Shown: positions 6,001-39,970 of the stretch, piece after piece
Position numbering within the stretch: position 1 is the stretch's first letter
How the letters are laid out: every line of letters starts with the position of its first letter
Assembly: GCA_049287205.1 (NCBI GenBank)
Contig: JBAQFJ010000001.1
Span: 1-41,155 of the forward strand
Reading direction: 5' to 3'
Source: Microgenomates group bacterium
GTDB lineage: Bacteria > Patescibacteriota > Microgenomatia > UBA10105 > UBA927
Length of the DNA: 41,155 nt
Position numbers and translations under genes: made by a program
The notes under the pieces: model-generated
Seen by the model: the letters and a program-made list of their open reading frames with translations, nothing else
What the model was told of the DNA's origin: nothing
Database searches by the model: none

Positions 6001-9000
6001 TTGCGTCTGCACTGCTCGGGAAATACAGCGGCGAGAGTGTTACTGTTTCCGTACGCGATATTGATGTCTATCGTCAAACGCAGGTAAAAGAAGGGACAAT
6101 CCCAGAAGTGGTTAAAGAACAGCGTATTTCCCAAGCTGAGTTGAAACAAGCCTTGGATACGAATAACACGGTAAAAATGACCAAGGAACAATCCATTCTT
6201 TCACGAACAGAACCTGATGTTGTCAAAGCAACCGCCATTGAACAAAAAGCGCAGGCAGTTCGGGAAGCAGTTGCTGTATATGAAAGTGCACTTCTTGACA
6301 GACCGAAGAAATTGGCTGCAGTAACTGAAGCAATGAAAACATATGAAAAGGCATTGGCTGAAAGCAATATTACGAGTTCGAAAACGACTTCTTCAGTGAA
6401 ATCCCTTACTACAGCACTTTCCGAAAAAGCAATGGCGTACACCAAAGCAGTCACCGAGTATAAACAAACCGCAACACCGGAGAATTTAACAAAAGTACAA
6501 ACTGCAGATATCGCATTTAAAAAAGCGCAAATAGATGTATTTGTTGCAGAAAAACAGGCGTTTGTATATGAGGCGGCAAAAGGGTTGAACCCTGTGGAAC
6601 GGGCAAAGATACTGACTAAAACAGAACTCATGCCTGAGCTGCCGGCCAGTTGGAGTGAACCACAGAAATTAACAGTAGAACTTCGGGTTCGCGCGATGGA
6701 GATGAAAATCAATGAGGTGTGGAAGGCAACCGGAAAACTCAAACAAACCGGGGTATTTGGATGGAAAGCAGCGCAAATTTCTGATGCAGTCAAACTCCTT
6801 TCTGGAAACCGTTCCCTTGCTATTCAAATGACTGGTGGAGGAAAAACATTTACTAACGCGCTTTATATGGATTTGAGCTATGAATTAACCGGACGGCCGG
6901 GAACATATATTGCCAAAGATGCGCAAAGTATTCAGGTGTACAACCAGTTAAAGCCGTTGTTCGGCGAGGATATCTATTATTTCCGGCTGGGAAAAGACAT
7001 CAAAGGCAACCCATTGGATATTGTGCAACAGGAAGCACAAATGCGCAGTGCTAAATTTATTCTTGCTGAACCGTCTGATATCGCGTTTTTGCTTGATACC
7101 ATGAAAAGTCCCGGACTTACCACACAGCAACAGATTGCTTCATTTGAAGCCTACAAAAAAATCTATACTGCAAACAGAACAATTGACGAGTTCCCAGAGT
7201 TTTTGAATTCGAAAAACGAATGGGTGATGTCGTTTACCAGCGATCAGGCAGTGATAGGGTCTACTAGACAAACTGCATTAATGGAACAATTACAGAAAGT
7301 GTTTGTTGAAAAGAATATCCTCACTGAGGGGCTGGTCGGTTCACAGGAGCGGGTGCAGTTAACGGATTTGATTGAAAAAACCATTGTGGTTTCTGATGGA
7401 ACCGTGGTAAAACAGTCGCATTTTACCGAAAAAGGTGTCAAAAGCATGATTGATTCCATGCTTGAAACAAAATTATCTGACGGCAATGTGTTATTTGACG
7501 GCTTGACCGGAACTAGAGAGCAGAAAATTGCAACAGTGTATGAAGTATTTGATGCAATTGCAACGCGTGATCCGGCAAAACTTGCAGCTATTGAAGCAGA
7601 TCCCGTGCTGACAAAGATTTATACAGACGCCACTTTCCTTGGGGACGCGATGAATAAATCGGCAACTATTTTAGTGTCAGAAATTGGAAGTCAGACATTT
7701 GCAACCGGTATCGGATCAAATGGAAATCTGCAGGCGAATGTGAAAGACGGAGATATTATCACAGCATTGTCCAGAAAAATGCTGCAGTCGTGGGTTTGGG
7801 ATACACCACTCACAATAGAAGCGTTAAAAACTGTTTCTGTTAACGGGCAAACAATTAAAACAAATATTTTTGATTTGTATGCGTGGGATATTGCTTTCGG
7901 AAGAGAGGTTGGAGGATTTTCCGGTGTGACTGCAACGCCTGATGCAATACGCAACATCGCAAAAATGGCGGGCTATACCGTTAATGAGGCAGAAATTCTA
8001 GTAGTGAATGCAGCCAACAAAAAAAGAATTTTCGGGGAGCCGGATGCGGCGACCGGTAATTTAACAGGGGGACGGGTGAGTGAGAAAAACTTCGTGAGCC
8101 TGGGGGAACAGGGGGATTTGGTGCAGGCGGTGAAAAAATATGCGGCGATGATGACTGAAGAGCTTGTTAAACAAAACGGTGTTGTTATAAACAAAAGTGA
8201 CAAGCATATTCTTGCAGTGAATGCGAGAGCTTCTAAAGAAGAAATCATGGCGCTTATGGCAAGCGAAAAGAATTTGGGAACGAAACGAAACTATGTCGTG
8301 GCAACAGAGGATGGGAATATTTATGAGGTGAAATTTACCGATGGAAAAGCGCAGTTTGTGGAAATGACCAAAAAATACAGCAACGTTAATATTTCCGCCA
8401 AGGCAACCGGACTGGAACGGATCATGTCTACCGGTATATCGGACCACACAACAGTTATCATCCTTGAAGGACAGTCTATCGGAGGCGATTTTCCGGGAAG
8501 TAAGGAGATTTCATTCCAATCCATTATTGATGCAAGCCGCGCAACAACAGAAATTGTGTATCAGACACATGGTAGAGGCATGCGTACAAACGAAACACTA
8601 CTTTCCGACGGAATGATTACCTTTGGTTCAAAAGAAATAGTCGGAAATTCAGCTGAGTCGATGAAGGAGTTCATCGGCAAAATTGAAATCAATTCGACAG
8701 TTGCACAAAAGAATCTCATGGCAGAGGCAATTCCTGCATGGCTCAATGCACAGGCAAATCTGCCGATGTATGAAGCATACGTGGAATTGATGAATGCTGG
8801 AAAACCAGCTGAGGCGGCAAAAATCTCCACCATGCTTGCCGACATGCAAAAAGTACAGGAAAGCTATGATGCAAACGTGTTCAAAAAAGGAACAGAGTTT
8901 AAGGATTCGGTACAGCAAAAAGTGAATGAACTATCAGCAAAATATAACAGACTTCTTACTGAAAATGCAGACTTTTTTAATCAGCCGGACATGGCAGCGC

Positions 9001-12000
9001 TTAAGAATCGTCTGCTTGCTGATAATGTCGAAGCCTACACGATTTCTATCAAAGAAACTGGTGGAGACGTTGCAAAATTACAACTTGCCGGCGATGGACT
9101 TCGGGGTGCAGCTAGGCGAATATCAGAAAACTTAAGCTTTGACGAAGTGCCGAAGTATGTTGCAGGCGATACTGCAAAAGGGGAAATTTCCGCGAAGCTT
9201 GCAGATGCGCTTAACGGCATAAAAGGTGAACCGATTACCATCACTGATCCGGCGTCAGCTGCACTAAAGGCTGCTGCTATGCAGGCAGAACAGGATCTTG
9301 CGATTTCAGGAGGCACCACAGGAACAAAAGTTGTTAACACAAAGAGCAGTACACAAACAGCAGTAGACATATTAAAAACTATACAAGGACAATCAACAGC
9401 TATACAAACTCCGCAAGACCGTGCATTGGTGATTCAAGGATTATCTCCTGCGCGTGCCAATGTGGCAGCAGCACTTGCTCTATATCAACAGGAATCGGCA
9501 AAAATAACAATAACCCCTATTGATCAAACAACTGACAAAAAATTGTCTGTCGGCGTGAAAGTAGAAGGACTTGCAATAACCAATGCGAATCAGGTTGTGC
9601 TTCGGGTTTTGAAAACTGGAGGAAGAGTTGTGACAACCGTCGGAGAGACAACGTTCGATTTTGCAGACAATACATCTTATTATGTGGTTGCACCTGAAGG
9701 ATATGTAGGAAACACCACAGTTGATGATATTACTACGCGTGCTGGTGGAGTGAAAGTGACTATCGCTTCATCAGTTGAACAACCTGCTGACTCTGCAGTG
9801 ATTGCAAAAGCGCTTCAAGATTTGAATCTTGCAAAAGATGAGGCAAACACGATTGAATATGGGTTGTTTGAAGATGCGCTGCAACGAGTTACAGAACAGG
9901 TTGGGGGAACAGATGAATTTGCACGAAGAACTGCGGCATCTGCACTTATGCAGTATGAATCCGCTGTTTCTGATGTTCTTGCAACAATGACAGATGCACA
10001 GAAACAAAGTCTATCAGACCCTATAGCACTAGATACTAATGCATCAATATTGGCAGCACGGACAGCAGCAGTTACCGCAATTGCTGCATATAAAAATGAT
10101 GCAACATTTGATGCGGAACAAGCGGTAACTCAACTTGCACATCCAATCATGACAACACTGATTGCACTTGCAAAGGCAGAAATATCAACTATTGCATCAG
10201 ATACAACAACCAAAGACACTGTGACCTTTGGCAACGCACCAAAAGCAAAACAGACAAGTGTTGTCGGCGCATTCTTTACAGGCATTTGGAATACATTAAA
10301 TCCTCAGGGTACAGAATGGTTTACCGCAGGCGCGCAGACCGTGCAGGCGTATTGGAATCTGACAAAGAATGCTGTACAGCAAGGCGCGCTTGCAATTCGG
10401 CAAAACGCAGCAACGCGCCGAGTTGCGCGGGCGGAAGAAAAACTAGACGCAGCAAAAGCAGTGAAAAGGATCACTGTTGCTGACAGAACAATAGGACAAG
10501 CAACTCAAACACAGGTGACTGCGGAAAATCGTGCACGCACACAAACAGCCGGATTACTCAGTATTCTTCCATGGAAAAATAAAGCAGCACTCAAAAGTGT
10601 GATGCTTGAAATTGACGGACTGCGAAAAGACATCACCAATCACAAAGCAGTATTAACAACACTTGCAGCGGATCAGAATACAACAATTGATGAATTGCCG
10701 GATGAACTGATAGGACAAGACGGAATTGATGTTTCTCTCCGTCGAGGAGTCATTGCTCTGGATGAGAAGAAGATTGGTGTGCTTCAGGATTCATTAGTGC
10801 CATTGTTGCCAAAACGATCAACATTCAGCCTGTTGTCGGTTATTGATCGAATTTCCACATGGAGAAATTTGACGATTGAAAAACGGCAGGAAAATGCACA
10901 AAAAATATATGATACGGCAGTAGACAAACAAACTGCACTTGCAACACAACAGGCAACTGCTGAAAGCGATCTTACTGTGGTGCAAGAAACACTCACCAAT
11001 GCACTTGCCGCATGGAGCGAAGCTGCACGTCCAGGATTTGCCGGTGGATTTACCGCACTCCGAGAGGCAATTGTTGATCCTGACTATTCTCTTAGAAAAC
11101 AGGTTGACGCCATGGTGCGCGAAGAGAAAAAAATTGACAGAAAGATTGCCAGAGAGAAAAATGCCGGTGATCAGGAACAAAAGCATTATGAGGCAGTGGC
11201 ACAAGAACTCGCACGGCTGAATGAAAAAATTGCTCCTTTTGCTGCAAAGGAAACCGCCGCGAACAACAGCATCAACAAGGCCTATCGCCGAATTAACGAT
11301 CTTGAGAAAAAAATTACAAGAATGTCTGCCGCCACTCAAACAACTGCCATAGAAACACGCATTGCCGGATGGCAAGCACAGATTGCAGTCCAGCAAGCTG
11401 AAATTGCCCGTATGAATGCGGAGAATGCTGAAAATCACAAACAATATACGAAGATTTCCAACCAAAAGAAATCCTTTGAGCAAGAATTGACGGTCGCACT
11501 TCAAGCGGCATCGGAATCAAAAGATGTGATTTTGACCCTGGAAGAACAGAAAAGTGCTCTCGTGGAGCAACGTGAGAACATAGCGATTTCTGATGCACCG
11601 GGATTGTTTGAATCCATCAAACGCATTGCCGGATTTATGGGTGTAGGATCGGCATACAATGCGGACGTTTCATCATGGGCACGGCAACTTGTCGGATATA
11701 CCGCTGGCAATGTATCTGATACCGCTATTGCCGCTGCGTATAAAACAAAACATGCGGTACTTGCCTCAGCCTTGGAAACAGCAAAAAAAGATGTTGTAAA
11801 CGCACAAATCGCATACGACAAGGCCACTATTCGTCAGGAGAATGCGAAACAAAAATTGGCACTCATACAGCAATCACTTGAGGATTATAAAACTGCAAAG
11901 CAAGATAATCCGACAAACATTGCGCTTCCAAATGTCATGAGCAAAAAATGGCTGGAGGAGATTGCAACACTACAAAGCAAGGTTGAGGCAATCGATGAAC

Positions 12001-15000
12001 AGCTCCATGGGCGGACAATGGAGAACGCAGCTGATGCCGCTGAAAAGATCGAAATATATCAAGCTACCTCTCTTCGGACCATCTATACCGACCGGATTGC
12101 CGAACTGGAACGCAATGTTGCCGAGAAGAAGACGATCGATATGTCTGCTGTGGATACATCATATCTGGCATATCTTGAGGTTTCCATGCATAACGCAGAA
12201 AGCGCTGTGGAGATAACAACACATTATACAAACGGAATGAAATTCCTATTGACTCATGCGGAAACTGTACTGGAAAAACGACAAACAGCACTTGATGCAC
12301 TTGGAACATTTGAGGCTCCTGTGCGGGATCTTGTGATGCCTGCAGCCCCAGGATTTCCACAAGTATTGCTGTCTATGGTTGCACAATTGAATCCTGATAT
12401 TAGAACGATGTTGACAGAAGAACGGCGACAAAATGCTGTGTATACCGTGGCGACTGAACTTCTTAAAAAAGGAACCACAGAAGTTATCCAAGTATTGACT
12501 ATTGAAACAAGCGGCCTTGCAAAAACCATTACAAAGCAAGCAACACATGTTTTGCGCGTCAACAGAGGATCTTCAACACAGGAAGAAGAAGTGCAATCGA
12601 TATTTACAGCTGCAAAAGAACAGGCGAGTGCATTTGTAATGCTCTTTACTGCATTTTCCGCTGAACAAAAGAAAGCTATTGTGGTTGCAGTCATTGCCAA
12701 ACAACCAATCGGGGACAGTAAAACAAAACAGCTGCTTGAGACAGAACTTCGGACTGTTGCACATGATGGGCTCTCAGATATGCTCTTTACCTATTGGGTG
12801 TCGAGCATGGCTGAACAATTGCTTCCAGTAGTAAATACAGCAAAGCAAACAGGAGAAATTAAAATTATTCCAGCTGGAACGCAATCCATTGCACCGATTA
12901 CTCCTATTGCTCCAATTGTTTCCTTACCAAAACCTTCTGTGATTACACCAGCAGGTCCTACTACGGAACAAAAAGAGCGTGTGGATATGATCATTCAGGA
13001 ATATATGATCACCGTTCGAAAAGAAGCGGAAACAACAAAGAATTTGGATATGCTTACGTTTATTCCTACCGTTGTTGCAGCGATCAGCCGAGATATTACT
13101 GATGAGGGGCTTCCAGAACTTACGCTTTCACAAATAGAAGCAGTAACAGAGCAACTTACATTGGAGATACAGGCAGGTATTGCAAAACAATCTGCAGTAC
13201 CAGCATCTCCACTGGCACAGCAAAAGGCAACGATAGAAACAGAAATTGCCAGTGTGACGCAAGCGCTCCGTGCGGCAACAACTGTTGTTGAAAACTATAC
13301 AAAAAATAAAGCAATAGTCGATCAGATTAAAAAAGAGCAAGGGCAAATTCAGGGGGTTCAAAAGCAAATCACTGCTGCACTCACCGCAGTAGATGTAGAT
13401 ATACTCGCCGTGGACGATCAACTGCAACAGGCATCTGCGGAATTGAACAGATTATCTGTTCAAATAGCAAATTCATCAATTACTCCGGAAGCACAGGCAA
13501 AACGCGCGCAGGCAGTTGCTGAACAATTAGTGAATACTATGGATGCAGCACAAATACCAATTATTCAACAATGGGTTAAGACACTCAATGCTTCACAGCA
13601 ATATACAGAGGCTTCGATTCGCGAAGTACTGACAAATGATTTGCAATCTCGTTTTGCTGGCATTGAATCACTCGCGGCGGAGCTGTTATCTACGACACCT
13701 GAATTTGCAGGTGACACGGACGGTGTCAACAATTACGCGGCACAAATTGCACAAACACTTTCTGTTCAATGGTTTATCAATCGGTATACAGATTCAAAAT
13801 TCTTTACAGTAAAAACTACTGTTGATCCAACTACGGCGCGAAATAGTGTTGCCATTGGAGATGTCCATGGTGATTGGAATGCATTAGTAAAAATACTCAG
13901 TGGTCAAATGGCAAATGAAAATGGAGAACGTATCAAAAAATCACTTATTGATAGAAATGGCAATTGGATTGGTGGACCGACGGATCAGCTGATACTAACT
14001 GGAGACTTTTTTGACAGAGCCCCGGATGGGATATTAAGTTCCCAGACAGCAGAAAAATTAATGAAATTACAACAACGTGCGGGAATGATGTCTGATGGAA
14101 AAACACCAAAAATTGTGATGCTTTTGGGTAACCACGATGCAAATACAGTTGTTGCATACAATAAAATGAAAGCGCTTCTTCAATCCGGTCAAATGACAGA
14201 TGTGAAGGAGGCTGCCGACCTTGCATCAGTTTTTGCGCCAGTAAAGCCGGGCATTGCCGGTGATGATTTGTTGTATTTGTATAATCATCCGGAAGTGGTT
14301 GATTGGGCAACTCGACTTCCTGCAATGTTTGTACAGGACGGCGCATTGTATATGCATAGTGATAATCTTTCATATCTTTCTCTCGGAAGAACGGTCGATG
14401 AAGTGAATGAAAACGTAGGGAAGATTCTTCAATCTGGGCAAGCCACCATTATTGATGCGGACGGAAATACATTGGAGTTTGACCAAACAAAACTTGCGAA
14501 GAAATTGACTGACAGAGGGAAATTGTATGGTAGTAATGTTGATAAAATATTGAACCAATATGGTGTACAGACCATTGTGCACGGCCACTCGCAGGGAGAA
14601 GCCTCTCAAGATCCACGAGTGACGAATGTTGATGGCGGATTATCGGAATCATATAGCGGGCAAGCAAAAAATCGTGGAAGATTTGCATCACAACAGGTGC
14701 AAGGAAAACAAATAACCACAGTTGCTGTTTCCCCTCTAACATTACCAGTGGCAGATGTTGCAGTTGATCCGATTCCATTATCACCATCGCTTGTTAGTGC
14801 AGCAGCAACCCCAGACATACAGGCGCAACTTGCAACATATAAAACGCAAGTAGAGACGCTTGCAAAAGAAAAAGCGCAGTTATTTCAGACAAAAATAGAG
14901 CAACGTTTTCAATTGGAAGCACTAGAAAAAACGTTACAGGAAATAACTACAAAATTGAGTGGAATAGCTGTGAGTGAATCGACATATAAAACAGCAGTTG

Positions 15001-18000
15001 CATCGCAAAAAGCGCTGAAAAAACAACTTGCGGCAAACAAGAAATTGTTAGATGAGGCTACACAATTGATTGGAGCTCAACAGGAGTTGCGGGCGTATGT
15101 GGCGACCTTGCGTAAAAATAAGTTGGTAAAAATCAAAGACAGTGCAGTTATCTCCTTAGCATCGCTTTCGGACATGAGAGATTTCGTTTCCGCTCTTGGC
15201 GGGTTGGTGGCAGCGTCTATTGAAAAGCTTGTACCGACGACTGCCGATGCAATTTTTACCATAGAGGCGTTAGTAATTGATGCACTTCCTCCCGCAGGGT
15301 TGATCAATAACATTGTTGAAAGTACAACATTCGTGCAAACTATTCAGCAGGCACTGCTTAATGCAGCCGATGCACTGGATACAGAGGCACAGCGTGCAGT
15401 GTTGATTAAACAGCTGCAGGGAATTGAGATTGAAGATATCGATACCTTATCTATTCAAGAACTCCAGGATCTCGTTGACATGTTAAAAGACGATGCAGCG
15501 CAGTTGCAACAGGGGCAAGAGGCACAGATACAGCAGAAGATCCAAGAGGGTATTGATGCATTCAAGCGTATTGCAGCAGATCAAGCGGGGAGGAAAACAC
15601 TCCTTGCTGTGCCGGATGTCAATGTATTTGCGGTAAACGCAGTGGGTCAGTTAAATGTGGAACTTCAAAAGAATGCGCTTCCTGTGTTGTCTCAGTTTCA
15701 AGAGCGAGCTCTTGCACTTGAAATTGTTTCTATCGTGACAACAGTGAAAAAAGAAGAAGCTGTGGGGACAGAGGAGCAATCGTTTTATACCGAAGAAGGG
15801 GGAGATTTGGTGGAAAAGGCGACGAATAGGCGTTATCCCAATATCGAACCGTTTAGGGAAGCGGGGAAAAAGTCACCGTTAGAAGCTCCGGGACCTGTTG
15901 TTTCTGTTGGTACCTATGATCCAAACGAACGTCCGGTTCTTTTTAACTCCAATATGTTTAATTCGCTTCTTGAGAACATGCGTACACATTCGTATACCTA
16001 TGATGCAAACGGTCAACAGGTCTTTTCGAAGGAATTTGGTGCCATGTTGTTTGGTCGAGAAAAAACAGATCCGCAATCAGGCAAAACATATGTTGAAGCT
16101 GAATATTATATTCCATTTCCGGAATCCACATTGGTGGGGACTGCGGGCGATTTGAATATAACTCCTGAAGCATGGGCTGCAGTATCAAAAATCGCGGATG
16201 CAATGGAAAAACACGTTGAACCTGGTCTCATTCCATTGGGATGGATTCATACACATCCGGATCTCGGAACATTTTTGAGTCGGCAAGATCTGTTTATTCA
16301 AGGAAACTATTTTCCTGCAAAACTTGCGGTTGTGATTGATCCGAGAGAACAAAGCGATGCAACGCCTGTGGTCAGTACATTTTCAGAATTTGGCATAGGA
16401 GCAGCACAAAACAATACGCGTTTTAAAAAACATCAAGGATATTACTTGGCATCTCAGACCATGCTACCGCGAGCATTGACAGATGATGCAGTGCAGCATA
16501 TTGCTGAGATTAATACAATCATTGAGGACTTATCTGTTACACCTGCGGGGACAGGGACATCAGAACTTGATCAGGAAATAGCAAAAGAAAAAGCTGTTAT
16601 TGCTGAAAAAGAACGGTTGTATGCAGCAATCGAAGAAGAAGCAAAAGACAATGGTGTGATGCCAAAGGATATTCGAGCACGAGTGCTTGCGTTTACTGAT
16701 TGGTATTCAAAAGAAATGGGAATACCATTTTCAGAACGTAAACAAATGGATTTAGATCAACAGCTGAAAGAACATGCGCAGGCCGGTGTTTTTTCTTGGA
16801 CCAGAACTCAATTTACCGATGCAATTACTGCTATTCGTGCTGGGGGAATAACAATAGAAGATCTCCCTGCAGCTCCTGAGTCAGCAGCAGAAGGGTTTAA
16901 AGTTTTGCAAGCATATCTTGATTACTTACAGACACAATTTATTGGAGAACAGCAACTCACAGCAGATAAAATTGCCGTTTCCACTATTCTTGAACAATTT
17001 AATACTATATTTGCTGCAAAAGGACGGTTTGATGCATCTTTCATCAACGCAACAAAATTACTATTTGTTATTCCAGATTTAGTGAATGCAATTGCAGATG
17101 TACAGGCATTCAGCAAAAAACTGGATACAGAGATTCAGCGGCAAGAAACAGAAGGCCAATCTCAAGAAGCTTGGATGCAAACACTTCAAAAACAATTAGA
17201 AACGCCAGGGGTCGCAACAATACTTATCACACGAAATAACGGAGTTGTTGCACAGACCATTACAACGCCATCATCGTCATATTTTGCTGATGTTCAAGCA
17301 ATATTCTCTGCGTTGTCGACAACAGATACGATTACTGTATTTTTTACTGCCGATGATGGGTCACAATTTGCAGGAACATATCATCTGAATTGGTTCGGGA
17401 GAGTAGTACAAGTTGGAATGAATATTCCATCGTTGTCGTCTGTTACTGACAGTCGACCAGAAGGTATATTTCAACCAGTTCCTGCATATTTAACACCGCA
17501 ACAAAAAGGAGAGATCGAGGTGTTTATAGATAGTATTGAAAATGTAACAAATGAAGCGGTTCGTTCGAGAGAAAATGAACAATATGCACGTGCGTATGCA
17601 CGTTTTGAAGAGCAATTAACAGCTGCTGAAAAAGCTGCAGCACGCTCGCAAGAAGAAATTGATGCACAAGTCGCACGAAGTGCAGCACTTGAAGCAGAAA
17701 AGCTGCAGAATGCACAGACAAAATTTCTTCCTGCGGGTCCAACTGTTCAAGAGCAAATCAGTGCAAGTTTGCTTGCTGAAAATACTGAGGTAGCACAAAT
17801 GCTCCTTGATCAATTGAAAAATATATCACAAGGGAAAACGATCGACATCGTAGATCCCATAAGTGGAGAAGTGTACACCGTGTCAGATTATACAGCTCCA
17901 TTTTTGACGACTGCGATGACACAATCCTATCAAGCAGGAAAAGATAGTGCGCGCGTTGTATCAATGATGCGACCATTTATCGTTGCTCCCCAAAATGTAC

Positions 18001-21000: not shown

Positions 21001-24000
21001 TTGATGATATGTTGAGTTTTTTGAGGGTTCGAATACAAGATATACAAAAAAATGTGCAATTTTTTCAAGCCGCGAAGACGGATCCAATCCTTCAGATATT
21101 ATCCCGTATACATCGTATTGTTTCTGATGATATCAAGTTTAGTGGAGATCTCGCTATTTTGGATGCATCGTTTAAAACAAAAGAGGATTATATTGGGCAG
21201 CTTATTTCTCAAGAAATACAACCACTTTCTATAGATAGAGTGAATTTACATCTTGAAAATCAGCTGACATATAAAAATAGACCGGAAGAGTTTTATAAGA
21301 GTGTGAATGATGCTATTAACAAGCTTACTCGTTTGAAATCTGCAACAACACTGGAAGAACAGATCCGTATCGCATTTACTGATGACATCAAAGTTACGCC
21401 GGCAGGCGTGGAACAACCGGAAACTGTTGAGGTGAAAACACCAGTTGTAGATACAGCTATGGAAACTGTTAATAAAACCATCGTTCTTGCGCAAGGGTGG
21501 ATTGAAAAAATTAGATTAGGAGAGGCTGCGTATGTTGAAAATATTCCTAAATTTATCACGCGGATTCAAGAAGTGGTAGCACCATTACCCGCTGAATCAG
21601 AGGCATATGGTGCGGCACAGAAACTGATTCAAACACTTCAAGAGCTGAAAAAACAACAGACAGAAAAAAAAGAGCAGGCTCCAGAAATTCCAATAGAAAA
21701 AAAACCGTTAGTTGAAGAAATAGCTGTAGTGCCAATTATTGAAACAGTGCTTACTGAGGAAATTGCACCAATGATGACAAAGCGATTGCCTGCGGTTTGG
21801 AAGACAGTACAATCAGCAAAACAGCAGGACATTATTGCCGGACTCCAACAAATAGCAAAAGGCGCAATAGAAGATGAAGTTAATCAGTCATATGTCAGGG
21901 ATATGATTGCTGGAGCTCGGTCAAAGGCATTTGTAACGAATCGGTTATCAGCCGCTTTTGAGGATTATCTTCAACAAACACTTGTGCAAACCGGTCTCAT
22001 GACAGGTGAAATTCCACTTGCACTTCGGACAGATTTGGCAACACTCGTGATTGATCAAATTACACCATTTGTATCGACGACAGTCACTATTTCGAAGCCT
22101 GAATCGACAACGACAAAATCGAAAATGACAACACCAGTCGCAACTGTCAATACAACCGTGGTAAAACAACAAATTGCAGATCAAGTGCGAGAACAGATTG
22201 ACGGTCTACTACCAAATCTTATTGTTGAACGTGCGGAGCGAAATGCAGTTGAGGAATCAATACAACGTCTGCAACAAGCAGGGGGAGACGTGGGAGCAGC
22301 GATTAAGAAAAATAAAGAGGCAATAACCAATGTAACATTGCAAGAATTGCTTCGAACGCATGAATTTACACCGGAATCTGTTCTGTCTTTGCAAGGAGCT
22401 ATATATCAAAAACAATCAAAAGGTGCGCTTTCTGTATCAAATATCGCTTGGCAACTTGATCCGGAACAAAAAACAATTGTCACGATTCATCACACAGACG
22501 GAGTTGTTGATCAGGTAAGTATAAAATCAAGTGCAATGACGCAAAAAACACTGCTTGCCTATATGCGACCCCTCGACAGTGCAGTATTTACCACAGCCGC
22601 CGGAGAAAAAATTGTGATTACGCTGACACGACAAGGCGGAAAGACCATTGACGGAAATATGCAAACACCGGCAGTGTGGCAACAATACAGTTCTGTTTCA
22701 TCACCTACAATGATTGTTTCCGGTTCAACAGCAGATACGCCGGTGTATCGAGTTTCCGCAATGGCTATCGAAACTGGAGATAAAGCAGTTTCCCTTGTTG
22801 GTGATGTAATAAAAACAACGGCAAAAGCAGCAGGTTCAGTCCTTCCTAAAAAAGCCACATCTTTAGTTGGTGATGTGCGCGCCATGATCCCGCAGGATGT
22901 GCCGTATGTTGTACGAAAAGCAGTAGGAGATGCACTTACACAGGAATTTGCGGCACAAAATATTACAACGTATGAAACTGCCGCCGCATTTTTAGCAAAC
23001 GGGACAATCTCACAAACCATGCAAACGACGTTTGCCGCATTACAAGAGCTGACAGCGAATGCAACGGAATGGTATCAGGCAGCAGGTATGGTAATGACAC
23101 ATATGTCTGAATTACAATGGGATCCAAAATTTACCGTTGTAACCCGACAAACAACGGCAAGTATTCTGGCTGGAAAAATTGCTGATGCTACACGTATGCA
23201 TGCATTGGTTGCAGGAAAAACCTCTCTTGCTTCTCAAAGTGAGATTATATTGTTAACCGGCAGAATACTCACGATGTATGCCGCGGGAACAAATGGAATA
23301 AAACTTTCTTCGAAAGAGACAAAAGCAGTAATAAATGCATTACAGCAACCTATAAGTGTATATATCACTGCTGTATTGGAGAATCAAATTGCGACAAGCA
23401 CGCTGTTTCCGGCTGAACAACCAGCGTTACAAAGCGCAGCAACAGAAGAGGTGAAGCAATTGATAGAGGAGGAAACAGTACAGGCACCAGTAAGAGAATT
23501 AACTCCATCAGAAGTGAAAAACCTCCTCCAAACAGCGCCAATGATCGAAGAAATACGAACTGACATTGCATGGAGATTATCAAAGAATGCTGCACTATCG
23601 TCATTAACCACCATGGACGCGCTCCTTGTTGCCAACGGGCAGGTTGAACAACTGATACAAGCATCTATTGGAGAGATTGTGCAGGAAGCATACAGCGATG
23701 CAGGTGTAACCGGTGTGTTTAACCCACAGGAAAAAAATAACCAAGTGATTACCGACGTTGTGCATCAAACAACGCAGCAAGCGATGAGTGTATTAACACG
23801 TCTTATTCGAGGTGACATCGCATATCAAGGTATACAGCCTGCGGTAGAGGAAGCAGTTCGGCAGAGTGAGGAAACAACACGTGCGTATGTCTCATGGAAT
23901 CAGGTAAAAGAATTTTTGGATAAGACAACACATGTATTACAGGAACCGAATACGTATTTCTCCGGAGAAAGCCTTACATATATTGCACAACTTCTTTATA

Positions 24001-27000
24001 AACCACACGCACTGCAAACAGATTTGCAAACGATAGCAGAAAAACCAAAGGAAATTACAAAAAAACTGCCGAAAATGTTGAGAACGATACGGGCGCAGGA
24101 TATAGCGCGGCAGGCTTCAGAACGAACAAAAACAATAGTCAAACTTACAGCAACAGGGCTTGCAGTTTTAGGAGTGTATGCAGTTACGCACATTCCTGCA
24201 ATTCTCGGATTTGCCGGTGCAATGCGTATCGCTATGACGAATCCAGGAGCAAACATAACGCCAAGTTCGCCAGTAACAATTATTGAACAATTCACCCAAG
24301 CACCAACAATCAATCCAACTAATACCCTTGATTTATCCACGTCTACTCCAACACAAGCACCGTCAGCAACACTTGCTGCACCGGTTGATACTGTAGGACA
24401 AGCGTTATATGAAGCGTATTTGGGTTCTGCGTCAGTGCAGGATTTTGCGTATCGACCTCTTTTTGAGCGGGTTGTGAATGAGCGTATAGCACGCGCACAA
24501 GCCGAAGGAGATGCATTTTGGATTCGTATAACAGGAAAAAATGCATCGCAATTAACCCAAGCTGAAAAAGACGCAGTGTTGCAAAATCCGGTTGTTTCTA
24601 TTCCTTTGCTTGTGACAGATGGTGATTTGGTTGATCCTAGTGGTGGCAAGTTGGAAACAGCAGAAGAACAGGCTGTCGCACTTCGATCCATGCGAAACGA
24701 TGCAACCTTTGTTATTTATTTGAATACACAAACAGGACGTTTGGATATATTAAGTTCCACGCGGCAAGTGCTGATGAGCAATGGCGGGCAATATAACGCA
24801 CTGTTACAGCGGGATAAAGAGAATCCGCTCCAAGGTGCCCAAATTGCACTTGAAGAAATGTTTGGGACTACCATGGATGAACCGATTGTGGCCGACCGGT
24901 TTTTCCTTAGATATCTGGTTGACGCGGTATTTCCAGAAGGGATTACTGTTTCTGTACCGCAAGATATGGTGCGTGACTCAATGAACGCCAATGGTCAGTA
25001 TCCTGTTGTGTATAAAGCAGGAACGTATACCTTTCATGGAGATGAATTGATTAGTTATATAAGCGTCCGTCATTTGCAAAAGGAGACAGAATATCATAGG
25101 CAAGCGCGCGCCGCACAAGTTCTTTTTCTCATGCTACAAAAATTCGGAAGTTCAGCAAATTCCGCTGAAATTATTGAAAACATGTCGCAGACTCTGCGAT
25201 TCCATGTTCAGGAAGGCGGCAGAATCATAATGCTAAATGATTTAACCGGTGCAAAAGGTTCAGATGACACATTCGCAGCACTGGCGACGCGGTTTCAATT
25301 TTTGCAAAATCCGAAATATTTCAGTTCCGGAGCGTTTGGAGAAATTTATGATCATCAACTTGCATTAAATGCCAATTTCTTAAATCCCCATCTGTCTGTT
25401 TTGCAGCCGGTTGCCAGCAGAACAGTTACTTATGCAAACCTGTTGAAAGCCCTTGGTGTCTATATTAATCCGGTTGGTGTGTATGTTCCTTCCGGCGTAG
25501 ACCTCTGGTACATGCCACAACCGTCAGCACAATCAGCTGGATATTTTGCAAGCACGCGGGAAATTGCAAAAGACATGGTGAGTGAAAGCGTTGACGAAAT
25601 ACAAACAGTGCTTGTTCCTGTTGTTCCCACTGCTGTTCCTGCTGTTGTTGTTCCTGAAGTTGAACCTGCTCAAGAAGAACAGGCACAAATACCAACAGAG
25701 TCTGCTGCTCCTGCGGCATACCAGATTACCGATCGGCCGGTGCGGATTATGCTTTTGGGAGACAGTCTGATTTCCGCAGGAACACTTCCGACAAAGTTTT
25801 CCGCCAGTTTAGGAAGTGCAGGATGGAATGTTGTATTTGTAGGAAGCCAGGCAACCGGACGTGTTGCTCATGAAGGCCATGGAGGATTTTCAACCAGCTG
25901 GTTTGTTCGAGATCTTCTTAATACTGATGGTGACGGCATGTGGAACAATCTAGGACAGCGGGAGCCGACACTAAATCTCAAAGGCGCAGACACTATACCG
26001 GATATCGTTGTGTTACAGATGGGCACGAATGATATTAATAACGGTTATCCGTTGGAAAAATCAAAAGCGAACATGGAGACAATTATTGCGTATCTGCAAC
26101 AGCAAAATCCGCATGTGCAGATTGTGATTAATCCTGTTCCCGTCATGAATGCTGACTACTACGAAAACGCAACACCTGAAGCGATTGCGGCATACAACGC
26201 GATGCTTGCGACACTTACAACATCAAGCTCCACTAATACTTCGAGTATTGTCATGACTGATGCGAGTCTTGAAAATATCGATTTGGCAATAGATATCAGT
26301 TCCGATGGTGTGCACCCAACTCAATCGGGCGATCAAAAAATAGCAAATGCACTGCAACGTGTTGTCGGGGAACGGTTATCAGAATTAACCGGTATTGATA
26401 CACAGGCATATGTACCGTCTGGAAAAGTATTGCAAATGCCGGTTGCAGTTGAACGCGTAGAGATTATGAAAATGATTGCAGTGCAACAATGGGAAGAATT
26501 GCAAAAAGGAATGAAAACAAGACAACAAGATGTTGCAGTACAGCAGGTACAGGTAAAACGAAATGAAATACAAGGACCTATGAAAAACATGATGGTTGAG
26601 ATCATTCCATATTGGTTGCAGCAATCTTGGTATACCAACGTGGTGATGTCTGAAAGTTTTTGGGCACTGATGGATTTAACGCATGATATAGAAGTAATTT
26701 TAAAAAATGATCAGGTGAATATCATCAAGACTCCGAAAAAAGCGACGGAAAGCAAAACAAGACAGACAAATCAAATGCTTCCCGTGGAACAAAAAGTGGA
26801 GGAAGTGGTCGCACCGGTGGTGAAAACAATTGAAGACGCGGAAAATGATCCCTGCGGTTTCAGCTCTTTGTTTATTGAATCTGTTTTTGCCCAAGGAGCA
26901 GGAAATCCCTGTAGCGGGTCAACAAAAATAGTAAAACAGATAAGTGGATTGGTGTTTAAGGCGACCGGACGCACAGCAAGTGATGCAATGAAACTCACCG

Positions 27001-30000
27001 CCTACATGCCACATCGGGTGATATGGAATCAGATAACAAACAGTAGAAAACAAGCTGTTCCTTTACAACAAATGGTGGTAAGTCCATTCTCTGATTCAGG
27101 AAAAATGATTCCGATGCAGACAGTGGAACCTGCGAATATTCAATCTATGAATCCGGAAAATGCAGATTGGAATGCATTAACTGTTGATGAAAAGGCGATT
27201 CTTCGTTTGGCGGATTTTGAAATAGTGCGAGATGAATATATTGCTATGAAATCGTCCTATTTCGGTTCACTTCCGAAGACATTCAGTGAAAAACTGACAG
27301 GTACGATTGCAAAAATTTGGAGTGCCGGAACCAATTTCCGTCGTATGCCACAGGATTTGTTTGTTCGACTTCGTGTGTTCCTGAATCCAAAAATCGCAAC
27401 AACTTTGAAAGCAAAAACCGTGAGCGCCTCTGTATTTTCCCGCGATACGCTGATGACTAATCCGACATTTACAGGAATTTTGGATCAGGCAAAGGCGGAA
27501 GGAAATACCAAAGCGTTGCAAACCATAAAGAATCTGCTTGATCGCGAAGTGATGAAAGAAGTAAATGCAGAGAATGTGTTGATGCTTGAAGGTATATCGA
27601 CAGAGGAACTTGCCGTGATTGTTTCAAAACTCGGGTATAATCCATGGGTTTTTTGGTCAGATAACAGGGGAGAGACCTCACGTATTGCTATTGATAATGC
27701 GTTAGTTGATGGAAAACATCCATTTGAGGCAAACGGCGCGTTGAATGGTCTTTCAGAGGAGCAAAAACAAAAAGAACTGTCCTACTTCCAGAAATTATTT
27801 CCGAACATTCCAAGGTGGCTTACTTGGCTTCCAATAGCAAAATGGAGCGTCTCTCGAGATCATAGCGTCGTCCACACCGTGACAGTTGATGGTAAAACGT
27901 ATCATTTTTTGACGATGCACGTTGATCCGCCAAACGCAGTAACGTTTGTGAAAGATGTGTGGAATAAAATTACCGGAAAAACCGCAAAAGATCACCGGAA
28001 TATGTTTGCGTACCATGCAATGGAAGCAGGAACCGGAAAATCATATGTCGGAACAGGTCTTTATGCTCTCGGTCAGAAAATGTTTATCCAACTCCTTGGC
28101 AGCGCAAAAGATAAGGGAATTATCGGTGGTTTAACTGTCACAGGGGAAGAGCACTATAAAACAACAGACACCGTTATTGGTGATGATGCCATCACGTGGA
28201 AGATTAGCGATATGGTGAAAGCGGAAACTGAGGCAAAAATAGTATCTCCGTCATTGACAACGGTTCTTATGAATCAGGACATTGACGCCTCTGTTGATAC
28301 AAGTGGAAAACCAACAATTATACCTGCAAATAATACGACGATTGTAGGGGAACACCATATTAGAACTTCGGTGGATGAGCAGAGTGAAGCTGATTTCATT
28401 AAGAAATTGGAAGTGTCTCAGGTGGTCGTTGTTGAATTTGATTCGCTTGGCGACAATGTATATTCCCAACAAAGCACCGAAAAGCGATTTATGCAGCAGG
28501 CGCAAGAACATGCACTTGCGCAAAACAAACCGCTCCTTGTTCTTGACAGCAGCATTGAGGATAGATATAAATTGTGGCTTGATGCTGGTGTCGATGTTTC
28601 CCGTGAAGATTTTGCCATTCTGACAGGATTTCGCCTGCTTTCACAGGATTTTGCCAACAATATCTCCGGCAGTCAGTCAAAGCAAACATTGGTTGATCTC
28701 TATACCGGATATTTTTCAGGGCAATCTGCGTATGCTAGCAGGTTGGCAGATGCGGTGTACCAGATGTATTTTGGACTTATTGAGTCAGATTCAGTTACGA
28801 AAAAGAATGCTTTGCAGGTTGATTTTGTGACGCTCGATGCGGCAGCGAGGGAACGGTATTACCAAAAAAGCATTGCAGCCATTGAAAAAAATGTATCAGA
28901 CAAAAACATATTGGTTGTTGTTGGTGCAAGCCACGCCATCCCAATTGCACGAACGATAACGGATGGATCGTTGACAAAAGCCGATCCTTTATTATCTACC
29001 AACATAAATACAACATTGTCGACGCTGAAACAGCAGATAAATTTTGAACAAATTATTTCGGGTATGCCTGCACTTCAGCAAAGTGAAGCTGCTTTGTCGG
29101 GGCAAAGTTTGACAATAGTGAGTATTCCTGCTGATTTAGCCTCATTTACCATGACGCGTGATGGATTTACCCTGAGTGGGAAGGGAACGATATCTGTCGA
29201 AGGTTCGACGTTTCCTGTCACTCTGGAGGGAGCATTTCCGATTTTTGCAAACATGACACCGTATCTGAAACAAGACGGATTTCCTGTTCGCGTGACAGTA
29301 AATGATGCAAATGGGAAACGGGTTGGATCTATTCACATGGAGTTTAATAAAGGGGACGAAAGTGTAGGGGATATAGGACGCTTACTGCAAGCAGACATCA
29401 ATAACAGTGTTTTTTTGACAGTGAACGTCGATGTAAATCCAGAATATCGGCAACAGGGAATAGCCACGGCGTTATTGGACTACACGGAACTATTGGCGAG
29501 TCAAGTGTTTTCTGAGGCCAAGAATTATCCTCAGCTGTATCCAACTAATCTTCGCATGTTTCATCTGCTTTTTGATGCGAATTCGACTGATGGGTTTACC
29601 ACAAAATATGCAGAATCTCACGGGTATAAGACAATCACACAGGGGCTACAATATGTGAAAGAGTTGACAGCAGATGTGAAATCATCTGTAGAGCAGGCAG
29701 AAAGGCTCAATGTTGGTTTGTTTGCTGAGGGGACAAAATATTTGGTGAAAGCGGGGGTTGATGCAGTACAAAATGGGGTTAAAAAGTTTTTGTATGGAAA
29801 CACAATTCAAAATTTTAATCAGTGGAAAGAACTAACATTTTCCAGTCAAGCATATTTGCTTCAACAAGCGGTACTTCGGGATCACAGAGATATTCTGCAG
29901 CGTATAGATATGGCCTCAAATGATGCACAAGAAGCAGTTAAAAATTTAGTTGCAGATACGTATGATCGGACAAAAACAGAAACAAGTTTACCGCTCGAAA

Positions 30001-32003: not shown

Positions 32004-32016
32004 AAGACGGACGCGT

Positions 32017-34077: not shown

Positions 34078-34079
34078 TA

Positions 34080-35012
34080 TTAATGACAGCCTCTTTGTGC
34101 TGCAACTCCGGTTGCAAGCGTTGCACAGGCAGCGGTATAACAGGTGCCGCTTACATAGGAGCCGTTCATGCTGTATTTTGTTCCTGAACCGCCGCATGTT
34201 GCGGGAGGTGCAGTAAGCCATCCTGGGGTAACTGAGTAGTCGAGTGAGCAGCTGTTGCATGGATTGGTGCAGACATAGGTTGCCGCATTGATCCCTGTTG
34301 AATCCAATGTTTCAAGACTACTCGCATCACAGTCGTAATCATATCCGCCACATGTTGTCCTTGCTGTTGTAAAATAGGCGGTTTGTCCCGGTTTTGCGTT
34401 GGCATCTGTATCGCAACAATCTGTTCCGACGGTTGCGGATTGTGCTGGAGATAACCCCGCGCATGTGGTTGCGCCTCCGCAGACGGATTGTGAGGTGATG
34501 GAATAATAGGTATCACTGTCCGCGTCTGCGTAGCAGGTAAGTGCTGCAAAATAGGAAGCGCTTGCATCATTGCAATCAGATTGCCATGTGGCCGCACTTC
34601 GTACAATTGTTCCCGCTCCACAAGTTGTCGCTGTTAATGTTTGGTCACTGGCGGCGATGGAAGCAGGATATGTGTCGGCATCTCCGTCTGTGAGGCAAAT
34701 AGTTCTGCCAATCAACATATTACCGGTATCTATGATGGTGATCATTGCTCCTGTTGCGGTGATGACAAAGCTATTTCCTTGGTTGACTACAAGGTTTTGT
34801 CCGGCAAGAATAGTAAGAGTAACATCGGCGGCAATGGTGATATTCCCTCCGACTGCACCGTCGTTTGTTCCATCAAAGGTGCAACTTGAAGTAAGGGTTA
34901 TGTCTCCCGACTGTGCAGTAGCGCATGATGTTGCATGGGCGAACGAGAGTGGGAGGCAGAATCCAAGAAATACGAGCGCGATTGCTGTAAAAAACTGTTG
35001 TTTCCTGTTCAT
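34080..35012 (-). CDS. Secreted Cys-rich protein: signal peptide, beta-helix-like region and repeated MopE-type putative metal-binding motifs
   Basis: ATG 35012 gives MNRKQQFFTAIALVFLGFCLPLSFAHA, a signal peptide with an AHA cleavage site. Next comes GDITLT..GGNITIAADVTLTILAGQNLVVNQGNSFVITATGAMITII, which is parallel-beta-helix-like. After that are DGDADTY / DCNDASASYF / DADSDTYY / DCCDTDANAKPGQTAYF...YDYDCD, which match the D.DgDGy...DCdD.da...PG motif. Confidence 0.8.
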   Translation of the reverse strand: MNRKQQFFTAIALVFLGFCLPLSFAHATSCATAQSGDITLTSSCTFDGTNDGAVGGNITIAADVTLTILAGQNLVVNQGNSFVITATGAMITIIDTGNMLIGRTICLTDGDADTYPASIAASDQTLTATTCGAGTIVRSAATWQSDCNDASASYFAALTCYADADSDTYYSITSQSVCGGATTCAGLSPAQSATVGTDCCDTDANAKPGQTAYFTTARTTCGGYDYDCDASSLETLDSTGINAATYVCTNPCNSCSLDYSVTPGWLTAPPATCGGSGTKYSMNGSYVSGTCYTAACATLATGVAAQRGCH

Positions 35013-35013
35013 A

Positions 35014-35529: not shown

Positions 35530-35576
35530 AATGAGGTAAAGATAAATAATAAAATCAATACACTATCCCTATGTTT

Positions 35577-35605
35577 ATAATGCTGATAAATAATGAAATT
35601 GTCAA
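35577..35605 (-). promoter_or_regulatory. Candidate sigma70-type internal promoter in the only sizeable intergenic gap of the operon
   Basis: On the minus strand there is a perfect -35 TTGACA (35605-35600), a 17-nt spacer, and then CATTAT (35582-35577; 4/6 to TATAAT). TATAAA lies 3 nt further downstream. This sits in the 116-bp AT-rich gap 35530-35645. Confidence 0.3.
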
Positions 35606-35645
35606 GAGAAAAAATACCCTGTTGGAACAAGAAAATATGTTGTAT

Positions 35646-37973: not shown

Positions 37974-37974
37974 A

Positions 37975-39810: not shown

Positions 39811-39811
39811 A

Positions 39812-39970
39812 TTATTTTCCAACGTATGTTCGGCCGCCCGGCAGAATGACGGTTGGTTGCATGTCAGCGGTTGTCATATATTGATTGATGATAAGAAGGA
39901 GAAGAATAATGACAATGCCACCAAGAAACAGTTGGTAGAGTGGAGATATTGAAGTATTATTGTGTTTCAT
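39812..39970 (-). CDS. Small (52-aa) single-pass membrane peptide, first gene of the operon (hypothetical)
   Basis: ATG 39970 gives MKHNNTSISPLYQLFLGGIVIILLLLIINQYMTTADMQPTVILPGGRTYVGK, which has one clear TM helix. Its TAA stop (39812-39814) lies 1 nt before the next ATG, in the same TAATATG junction seen elsewhere in the operon. Confidence 0.5.
   Translation of the reverse strand: MKHNNTSISPLYQLFLGGIVIILLLLIINQYMTTADMQPTVILPGGRTYVGK

Follow-up and report, generated by a model that had tools for sequence, protein, structure and literature searches.

In Omnitrophota and Actinobacteria, West-Roberts et al. (bioRxiv 10.1101/2023.11.21.568195) found giant membrane proteins whose domains include divergent SecA_DEAD, Ser/Thr phosphatases, GNATs and processing peptidases, and which have numerous transmembrane (TM) regions. 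SecA-type domains and Ser/Thr phosphatases occur on the actinobacterial proteins, and the divergent SecA of the giants in that work consists of a DEAD-motor and a preprotein-binding domain, without scaffold or wing, near TM regions. In that work, proteins of 30,000 amino acids (aa) are called 'giant' and those of 10,000-30,000 aa 'large'. Here we analyze a 41,155-nt stretch of contig JBAQFJ010000001.1 (the window), in which a single open reading frame (ORF) encodes a protein of at least 10,666 aa, within the 'large' class and under the 'giant' one. This chain, which we call the giant, is a non-repetitive multi-enzyme protein, and it is a very large, nearly orphan example of the 'giant genes' known from other ultrasmall symbionts and predators.

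Like the Omnitrophota and Actinobacteriota giants (Archaeovorin, Dockerin-type), the giant is one ORF of more than 10,000 aa, most likely from an ultrasmall, host-dependent bacterium, and is mostly unannotatable. It resembles them in having candidate TM regions with putative intra- and extracellular parts, a putative divergent SecA/SF2-type (superfamily 2) motor near hydrophobic segments, and a combination of Ser/Thr-type phosphatase, GNAT-like module, putative processing peptidase and cell-surface-polymer enzymes. The claim of an earlier, sequence-only reading that this constellation is unknown from any characterized protein was thus overstated, given the similar giants of West-Roberts et al. 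There are also differences: the phylum here is Patescibacteria (judged from one named relative), domains of the beta-helix, dockerin, glycosyl hydrolase and adhesin types are absent, TM candidates are far fewer, and detectable sequence homologues are limited to a handful of fragments. We found no mention of LCP, SGNH, JAMM, kinase-like or TraB/ChaN-type modules in West-Roberts et al. This enzyme set is new here, as are the size for a CPR-type (Candidate Phyla Radiation) organism, the clean, putatively two-sided arrangement of the chain, its near-orphan status, and a conserved core with swapped cargo.

Large ORFs have been noted in Patescibacteria as well (Seymour et al., PMC10066038; Moreira et al., PMC8080830). 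In Vampirococcus lugosii, membrane-localized giants of 1,392-4,163 aa carry the interaction domains WD40, TPR and PKD, and a role in recognizing and attaching to the host has been proposed for them (Moreira et al. 2021, PMC8080830). The giant resembles these in being a very large, putatively membrane-localized protein of a CPR bacterium with a reduced genome; unlike them, it is defined by enzyme modules, and at 10,666 aa or more it is far larger than the Vampirococcus proteins that we found described (up to 4,163 aa). The Lipocone preprint, finally, describes gigantic TM proteins that mix polysaccharide enzymes, signaling domains and peptidases.

The gene itself is laid out as follows, with residues numbered so that aa n corresponds to nt 3n..3n+2:

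3..32003, + strand: giant ORF, a stop-free frame, matched over its 3' part by Logan contig L004
19551..20132, + strand: sole internal duplication, aa 6517-6593 against aa 6630-6710, 33% identity

The frame is open from window base 3 to a stop codon at 32001-32003. Since the frame continues up to the edge of the window, the 5' end of the gene is cut off and 10,666 aa is a lower bound; the ORF lister placed the start at the first GTG, at base 30, and so gave 10,657 aa. Over the 32 kb of the gene there are 0 stops in 10,666 codons, compared to 270-670 in each of five other frames, and the probability of such a stop-free run, expected from base composition, is ~1e-304. The G+C content is uniform along the gene (0.39-0.46). 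In addition, a 6-kb Logan contig from an independent assembly (SRR28062503) is 100% identical to window 30303-36339, a span that takes in the last 566 codons of the gene, its stop and the downstream genes. These results show that the giant ORF is a real single gene, larger than first stated. Within the protein we found one short duplication only and no repeat array. The two duplicated units are helical, ~80 aa each, and both carry an 'N-x-[KQ]-EYRT-[ML]' motif.

We searched the chain as overlapping 1,000-aa tiles and short segments against Pfam, NCBIfam, PHROGs, PADLOC and PDB sequences. Four modules score above the curated Pfam gathering cut-offs (GA), the second of them marginally, and all four keep their catalytic motifs:

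13848..14591, + strand: PPP-family (Shewanella-type) metallophosphatase, aa 4616-4863, Pfam Metallophos
16023..16310, + strand: JAMM/MPN+ (JAB) metallopeptidase, aa ~5341-5436, Pfam JAB and motif
24693..25142, + strand: LCP (LytR-CpsA-Psr) glycopolymer-phosphotransferase domain, aa 8231-8380, Pfam LytR_cpsA_psr
25755..26336, + strand: SGNH/GDSL esterase, aa 8585-8778, Pfam Lipase_GDSL_2

The phosphatase scores 44-48 bits (GA 21.5), and all PPP motifs are present (GDVHG at 4619, GDFFDRA at 4667, GNHD at 4709, H4785 and VHGH at 4859). Its closest PDB sequences are the cold-active protein-tyrosine phosphatases of Shewanella (2z72/1v73, E 1e-3), and its PHROG match is a NinI-like phosphatase. The JAB score of 23.5-25.9 bits lies just above the GA of 22.5, with Prok-JAB below threshold and weak PDB-sequence matches to AMSH/Rpn11 (E 2.5e-3); the JAMM motif is nevertheless there, with the Glu within YVEAEYY (5363-5369) and HTHPDLGTFLSRQD at 5416-5429 fitting HxHx7Sx2D. 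The LCP domain reaches 42 bits (GA 24.6) and matches BrpA, TagT and TagV in the PDB (E 1e-6 to 7e-5). Aligned residue by residue to TagT/BrpA, it retains R-x-D and the downstream Arg positions, while the 'PRD' position reads TRQ, a single D-to-Q change. The SGNH esterase scores 65 bits (GA 32.9); its blocks are GDSL at 8586, GTND at 8674 and DGVH at 8768, and its PDB matches are the carbohydrate acetyl esterases 5b5s and 2vpt (E 3e-7). Beyond coiled-coil and phosphatase/lipase matches, the PHROG, NCBIfam and PADLOC tiles returned nothing.

The remaining modules fall below threshold or have no profile match:

6720..8717, + strand: P-loop, SF2-type ATPase-like module, aa ~2240-2905, from its motif set
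20586..20987, + strand: core of a tentative kinase-like module, aa 6862-6995, from motifs and AlphaFold2 (AF2)/Foldseek
28341..28937, + strand: TraB/PrgY/GumN-ChaN-EreA-type module, aa ~9447-9645, below threshold
29310..29516, + strand: GNAT-type acetyltransferase core, aa ~9770-9838, below threshold

The GNAT core scores 21-24.5 bits with Acetyltransf_7 (GA 27) and 18.1 with Acetyltransf_1 (GA 20.7), and its motif A is canonical (YRQQGIATALL, aa 9815-9825, containing RQQGIA). For the TraB/ChaN-type module, TraB_PrgY_gumN gives 18.3 bits (E 0.0023, GA 26.8), and two GxxH motifs, IVGEHH at 9447 and VVGASHA at 9639, lie ~190 aa apart; a search of PDB sequences found no match.

The kinase-like segment has no Pfam match and 0 homologues in a database of 5.8 billion clusters. 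It contains a G-loop (GSGANRAVY), a Lys in AILKI, DVTGAKNWGV and LLDITNF, at a spacing plausible for a kinase, with the Asp of LLDITNF 13 residues after the Asn and a catalytic loop that reads D-x5-N rather than D-x4-N. In a single-sequence AF2 model of low confidence (predicted local distance difference test, pLDDT, 42.7), the elements follow the order beta1-3/alphaC/beta4-5/alphaE/beta6-7, a kinase-like N-lobe topology. Foldseek against the PDB with this model returned kinase-fold entries as 49 of the top 50 matches (best E 4.5e-4, TM-score ~0.2), with N-lobe alignments at probability 0.97-1.0. On the basis of the motifs and this model, we tentatively call aa 6862-6995 a kinase-like module.

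The ATPase-like module has its motifs in canonical SF2 order: I, MTGGGKT at 2276; II, TIDEFPEF at 2393; and III, GVTATP at 2641, followed by a V-like VIILEGQSIGGDFP at 2818 and motif VI, QTHGRGMR, at 2854. Motifs II and III are separated by an insert of ~240 aa; in SecA, the preprotein-binding domain is inserted at the corresponding place. The motifs are retained in five database fragments and in the metagenomic relative L002 described below, so that the sequence identifies aa ~2240-2905 as a conserved P-loop, SF2-type module. This segment has no match in Pfam, NCBIfam, PHROGs, PADLOC or PDB sequences, and a profile of its family has no match among PDB sequences even at E 10. Pfam run on every family member likewise gave no SecA or helicase match; unlike the motors of the West-Roberts giants, this one is recognized by neither SecA_DEAD nor SecA_PP_bind in any of them.

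Direct comparison to SecA yields a weak signal. The Smith-Waterman score against E. coli SecA is 71, compared to 43.6 +/- 5.6 for shuffles (z ~4.9), and 1 of 300 shuffles reaches 71. With hhalign we obtained E 0.006 and a probability of 6% against SecA, and E 0.007 and 5.4% against a 12-sequence SecA/SecA2 profile, which is no gain; both alignments are confined to the Walker-A neighborhood, in identical register. The C-terminal half of the module shows no signal in the SecA comparison, and with the hidden Markov model of the ATPase family real SecA ranks 46th among ~3,000 shuffled decoys. Built from a 5-sequence alignment, an AF2 model was of poor quality, with a pLDDT of 43.5; the Foldseek matches of this model were non-significant though rich in SF2 helicases. 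Judged by these sequence comparisons, kinship with SecA is plausible but not demonstrated. As a side observation, a 13.8-kb plasmid of Legionella geestiana (NZ_CP041715.1) is nearly filled by one hypothetical protein of 2,948 aa (453-9296), whose embedded SecA-like motor has diverged far from E. coli SecA (25% identity); tried as an intermediate, this domain has no detectable relation to the giant's ATPase module.

The sequence-only reading had listed nine modules between 6780 and 29640, that is, from the first to the last of them at aa ~2260-9880. The tile-wise profile search confirms four, the PPP, JAB (marginal), LCP and SGNH modules, whereas the other enzyme-type calls are sub-threshold or without a match and the TM helices marginally hydrophobic, the SecA-like, kinase-like and ChaN-like calls all staying below any curated threshold. 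For these calls the evidence stands as follows: the ATPase has its SF2 motif order and weak pairwise statistics but no profile match and an unproven tie to SecA; the kinase-like call has its 49 of 50 Foldseek matches but neither a profile match nor a confident model; the ChaN/EreA-like call has its GEHH/GASH motifs and a TraB_PrgY_gumN hit that does not reach the cut-off; and the GNAT has its motif A but 24.5 bits against 27. The view of the chain as a multi-enzyme protein rather than a structural adhesin is borne out by its non-repetitive sequence, and we ruled out a repeat-built adhesin on the single short internal duplication.

Relatives of the giant are few. A phmmer search with the ATPase segment as query yielded five matches among 1.84 billion representative proteins, each a fragment of 71-852 aa, and a homologue search with the ATPase block gave 1 match. 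The GTDB species representatives contain a single relative, a 2.5-kb contig from a metagenome-assembled genome (MAG) labeled 'Patescibacteria group bacterium'; the N-terminal 600 aa of the giant have no match in the GTDB representative genomes, so the genome from which the window comes is not among them. JGI metagenomes yielded one relative, the 12.8-kb contig L002 (Ga0172369_10007328), which shows at least 3,934 aa of an ORF that is already open where the contig begins and runs to 11805. Apart from an ordinary metallophosphoesterase, nothing related came up among the contigs of IMG/VR or in collections of 50,697 phage and 72,556 plasmid records; viral contigs scanned with the ATPase block, and again with the phosphatase-JAB region, likewise gave no match. 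One database fragment, P0003 (ENA, 204 aa, on an 836-nt contig), follows the giant's ATPase block up to 'VIILEGK' and then continues as beta-lactamase-type (PF13354) sequence, which points to a genuine fusion or to chimeric assembly.

Comparison to L002 divides the giant into a kept part and a variable part:

5472..9275, + strand: core common to the giant and L002, aa 1824-3091, 53% identity, with a coiled-coil stretch and the ATPase-like module
26853..26912, + strand: Cys-bracketed 20-residue loop CGFSSLFIESVFAQGAGNPC, aa 8951-8970, common to the giant and L002

Upstream of this core, L002 is weakly colinear with the giant's hydrophobic/Cys-pair region (E only 0.14), and its segments there are more hydrophobic. 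Past the core it is unrelated to the giant and stops ~2,080 aa after the ATPase, in a cargo without any Pfam domain. This cargo includes a HETDH (zincin-type) motif at L002 aa 3600. The order of hydrophobic cluster, coiled coil and ATPase is thus kept between the two proteins while the cargo differs. The only further element in common is the Cys-bracketed loop, which recurs amid otherwise unrelated sequence and reads CGFSSLFIESVFAQGAGNPC in the giant and CGASLFIESVFAAGAGSSC in L002 (L002 aa 2703-2721). It may serve in processing or recognition, or act on the membrane.

No domain is detectable in about 80% of the giant, where Ala, Glu, Lys, Gln and Leu are abundant. The features of these regions are:

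3..2564, + strand: N-terminal region rich in Cys and in Thr/Gly/Ala, aa 1-854, its 40 Cys closely paired
4029..4860, + strand: weakly hydrophobic Ala/Gly-rich segments, aa ~1370-1401 and 1554-1572, from hydropathy
10878..11939, + strand: coiled-coil segment, aa ~3626-3979, NCBIfam SMC/helix-rich and PADLOC LmuB
24159..24215, + strand: best internal TM candidate, aa 8053-8071, directly upstream of LCP, Kyte-Doolittle 1.86
31596..31976, + strand: C-terminal cluster of three Gly-/aromatic-rich hydrophobic segments, aa 10532-10550, 10561-10578 and 10640-10658

The SMC, helix-rich and LmuB matches are far under their family cut-offs, as is typical of coiled coil; together with the composition, they fit helical spacers between the modules. 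The N-terminal region has no Pfam, NCBIfam or PDB match; it is probably extracytoplasmic and is a candidate adhesive or recognition head.

The 48 Cys of the giant all come in closely spaced pairs. Of these residues, 40 lie in aa 1-854; three pairs in aa 1428-1617 flank the hydrophobic cluster (1428/1439, 1548/1556 and 1604/1617); and the last pair, 8951/8970, brackets the loop and comprises the only cysteines after aa 1617. Across 7,333 consecutive residues, aa 1618-8950 (window 4854-26852), a stretch with at least five globular enzyme modules, there is no Cys at all. The chance of such an exclusion is 1e-13 to 1e-33 at 0.4-1% Cys; neighboring proteins have 0.6-0.9%.

By hydropathy the giant has four marginal TM candidates, aa 8053-8071 and the three C-terminal segments, plus two or three weaker ones at aa 1370-1572, which possibly form a membrane-embedded cluster. 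The C-terminal cluster is a probable membrane anchor. The candidate at aa 8053-8071, ~160 aa upstream of the LCP domain, is of marginal hydrophobicity, with a Hessa-scale sum of +3.3. The TM segments of neighboring membrane proteins range from -4.3 to +3.8 on this scale, and the giant's candidates lie at the weak end.

Downstream of the giant gene, the window contains several genes for envelope proteins:

32017..34077, - strand: Wzy_C (O-antigen ligase/polymerase-like) membrane protein, convergent, 686 aa in the Logan record
34080-35033, - strand: Cys-rich secreted-type protein of 310-317 aa, with an N-terminal hydrophobic segment and 20 Cys
35646..39822, - strand: two large polytopic membrane proteins of 794 and 615 aa, with many TM segments
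37975-39822, - strand: the 615-aa polytopic (GT-C-like) protein of this pair, with a C-terminal NPCBM/NEW2 glycan-binding domain (127 bits)
~40140-41155, + strand: polytopic membrane ORF starting MKKWMLGVLCVVFLLF..., which runs off the 3' edge

The 794- and 615-aa proteins have no profile match, apart from the NPCBM domain, and we read them as GT-C-like from their many TM segments. A further downstream neighbor, of 171 aa, is a single-pass membrane protein. The 310-317-aa protein has no Pfam match; its Cys lie in Asp-rich repeats (e.g., CCDTDANAKPG and GYDYDCD), and from its sequence it looks like a secreted Cys-rich metal- or glycan-binding protein. The MKKWMLGVLCVVFLLF... ORF prolongs this cluster of large membrane proteins. 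Scans of the window with Rfam and for tRNAs found no RNA genes, and the window has no mobile-element genes and no visible dedicated secretion genes, type I secretion included. The giant gene has a context of envelope-glycan biogenesis rather than that of a mobile element or secretion system.

Given these observations, we tentatively favor, at somewhat less than even confidence, the reading that the giant is a membrane-threaded envelope protein of a Patescibacteria-type ultrasmall bacterium, serving envelope remodeling or host contact. A disulfide-rich N-terminal head of at least 1,300 aa would lie outside the cell, and the weakly hydrophobic cluster at aa ~1370-1620 would span the membrane. 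The following ~6,400 Cys-free residues would be cytoplasmic, with helical/coiled-coil spacers carrying the SF2/SecA-type motor, the PPP phosphatase, the JAMM peptidase and the atypical kinase. The TM segment at aa 8053-8071 would then lead the chain back outside, where ~2,450 residues would bear the LCP glycopolymer transferase, the SGNH carbohydrate esterase and the TraB/ChaN-type and GNAT-like modules before a C-terminal hydrophobic anchor terminates it. The outside part may build, attach or remodel wall-linked glycopolymers and de-O-acetylate them at the cell surface or at a site of host contact, with the neighboring Wzy_C and large polytopic (GT-C-like) membrane proteins as possible partners, and the JAMM peptidase may process the giant chain itself.

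How the two sides could be coupled is suggested by analogy. In Gram-positives, CpsA (LCP)/CpsB/CpsC/CpsD and PknB/PstP-type systems couple an LCP transferase to a kinase and a phosphatase that control the assembly of wall glycopolymers. Like the Cps module, the giant has an LCP domain together with kinase-like and phosphatase modules, and a Wzy-type gene is close by. By this analogy with the CpsA (LCP)/CpsB/CpsD capsule module, the kinase and phosphatase pair may exert control from the cytoplasmic side. The Cps components, however, are separate small proteins of other families (PHP phosphatase, BY-kinase), whereas the giant joins a PPP phosphatase and an atypical kinase-like domain in a single chain, with the LCP domain thousands of residues away.

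The sequence itself establishes the ORF, the four enzyme domains with their catalytic motifs, the conserved core with its variable cargo, and the distribution of Cys; from several lines of evidence we infer the topology, the role of the motor, the regulatory coupling and any host-contact role. Every module that is ATP-dependent or of cytoplasmic type (P-loop ATPase, PPP, JAMM, kinase-like) is found upstream of aa 8053, and the classically extracytoplasmic LCP and SGNH domains follow directly downstream. This clean separation of enzyme classes at the TM candidate, which agrees with what had been proposed from the sequence, argues for a threaded topology, as does the order TM-then-LCP, which is the usual one, and the occurrence of Cys pairs only in segments placed outside (aa 1-854, 1428-1617 and 8951/8970). 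The envelope reading is further favored because the ORF is real and four domain calls exceed curated cut-offs with catalytic motifs kept; because the neighbors are envelope-glycan genes (the Wzy_C protein, the GT-C-like membrane proteins and the NPCBM domain bear out the adjoining envelope genes of the sequence-only reading); because the core of hydrophobic cluster, coiled coil and ATPase is the part kept in relatives; because the only named relative is a Patescibacteria MAG, which also fits the host-dependent bacterium proposed earlier; and because published giant genes share its themes, namely many TM regions with a divergent SecA-type domain beside them, phosphatases, GNATs and processing peptidases (10.1101/2023.11.21.568195).

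Several points weigh against this reading. All TM candidates have Hessa values of +2.6 to +3.8, compared to ~-3.5 to -4.3 for adjoining single-pass anchors, so that the TM helices which the earlier reading took as anchors have candidates of marginal hydrophobicity only, at aa 8053-8071 and the C terminus. The N terminus of the giant, and hence any signal peptide, lies outside the window. A cytoplasmic stretch of 6,400 aa without Cys is itself unusual, and an extracytoplasmic GNAT, which would be without acetyl-CoA, makes little sense. In L002 the Cys loop is on the ATPase side with no hydrophobic segment between, which clashes with a loop that is always extracytoplasmic. Statistics do not establish that the ATPase module is related to SecA. 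Finally, the downstream neighbors are convergent and so not co-transcribed with the giant gene.

Some of these points sit more easily with the main rival reading, possible but less likely, in which the giant is an exported polymorphic multi-effector: a conserved delivery core (hydrophobic cluster, coiled coil, ATPase) with lineage-specific enzymatic cargo that is displayed on the surface or passed into a host, where ATP and acetyl-CoA are available, the JAMM peptidase cutting modules free. The GNAT, kinase and ATPase all require cytoplasmic cofactors, the TM candidates are weak, and the exclusion of Cys from 7,333 aa is like that of proteins working in oxidizing or foreign compartments. The core is kept in L002 while the cargo is wholly different (no shared Pfam domain, HETDH, an earlier stop), the near-identical Cys-bracketed loop in unrelated cargo could be a shared processing or recognition site, and similar proposals have been published for giant proteins of predatory ultrasmall bacteria. 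Yet the undecaprenyl-linked donors that LCP requires are those at the membrane of the producing cell, the C-terminal hydrophobic cluster resembles a permanent anchor, no dedicated secretion genes are visible in the window, and we found no toxin/immunity signature and nothing alike in the phages, plasmids and viral contigs searched. We also know of no described secretion system in Patescibacteria that is able to inject proteins into a host. A bolder variant, for which we see only a slim chance, takes the core (aa ~1343-3091) to define a Patescibacteria family of self-contained delivery machines that is new and almost unsampled: a SecA-derived motor would thread interchangeable enzymatic cargo across the symbiont membrane, possibly into the host, with the JAMM peptidase and the Cys-bracketed loop as release or recognition elements. 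The sequence-only reading had looked for multi-effector parallels elsewhere, and neither holds. Polyvalent proteins of phages and conjugative elements, reportedly set out by Iyer et al. in 2017, likewise have many unrelated enzymatic modules per chain, sometimes a helicase-type ATPase with a processing peptidase, and varying cargo; the giant, in contrast, is chromosomal with an envelope-glycan context, Pfam, PHROGs and PADLOC found no DNA-processing or anti-restriction/anti-defense domains in it, and we ruled out a mobile-element protein on these grounds and on the lack of any phage, plasmid or viral relative in the collections searched. MARTX toxins, also very long chains with several effector enzymes, have flanking glycine-rich repeat regions and an internal cysteine protease domain. 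The giant has no glycine-rich repeat blocks, no matching Pfam domains and no type I secretion genes in the window, and with aa 1618-8950 free of Cys its cargo region can hold no cysteine protease domain; on these grounds we rejected a MARTX toxin.

The giant might instead be mainly a structural surface fiber or adhesin, its helical chain forming a fibrous coat or host tether with accessory or decayed enzyme domains. Giant proteins of CPR and Omnitrophota are usually interpreted as adhesins (PMC8080830, PMC10066038), and this reading would account for the domain-free, Ala/Glu/Lys/Gln/Leu-rich bulk of the chain with its coiled-coil-type matches, the Cys-rich head and the C-terminal anchor. We nevertheless consider it improbable. 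The chain is non-repetitive, unlike known fiber adhesins, and Pfam found no adhesin, Ig, cadherin or lectin domain; moreover, the catalytic motifs of PPP, JAMM, SGNH and (mostly) LCP are intact and the ATPase motifs are kept across relatives, which argues for a selected enzymatic function. To an assembly or annotation artefact, either a chimeric contig or genes fused through lost stop codons, we give hardly any credence. Short-read assemblies do fragment the locus (the 6-kb Logan contig and the 0.8-2.5-kb fragments of relatives), and P0003 looks chimeric with its beta-lactamase domain. We set this explanation aside, however, on the stop-free frame, when every other frame has hundreds of stops, and on the independent 3' contig, which matches the junction with the neighbors exactly; the uniform G+C and the frame of L002, independently open over at least 3,934 aa and colinear over 1,268 aa, also speak against it.

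Giant genes are leading candidates, though poorly understood ones, for the means by which ultrasmall episymbionts recognize their hosts, hold on to them and exploit them. The gene described here would take up ~3% of a ~1-Mb genome, which suggests strong selection. It is unusual among reported giant genes in being defined by enzymes, not by repeats or adhesins, in placing signaling-type enzymes on one side of a putative membrane crossing and wall-active ones on the other, and in sharing a motor core with a relative despite different cargo. With only five fragments among 1.84 billion representative proteins, such genes are missed by short-read assemblies and protein databases. If the core were indeed a self-contained delivery machine, it would represent a route of protein export and host manipulation distinct from known secretion systems.

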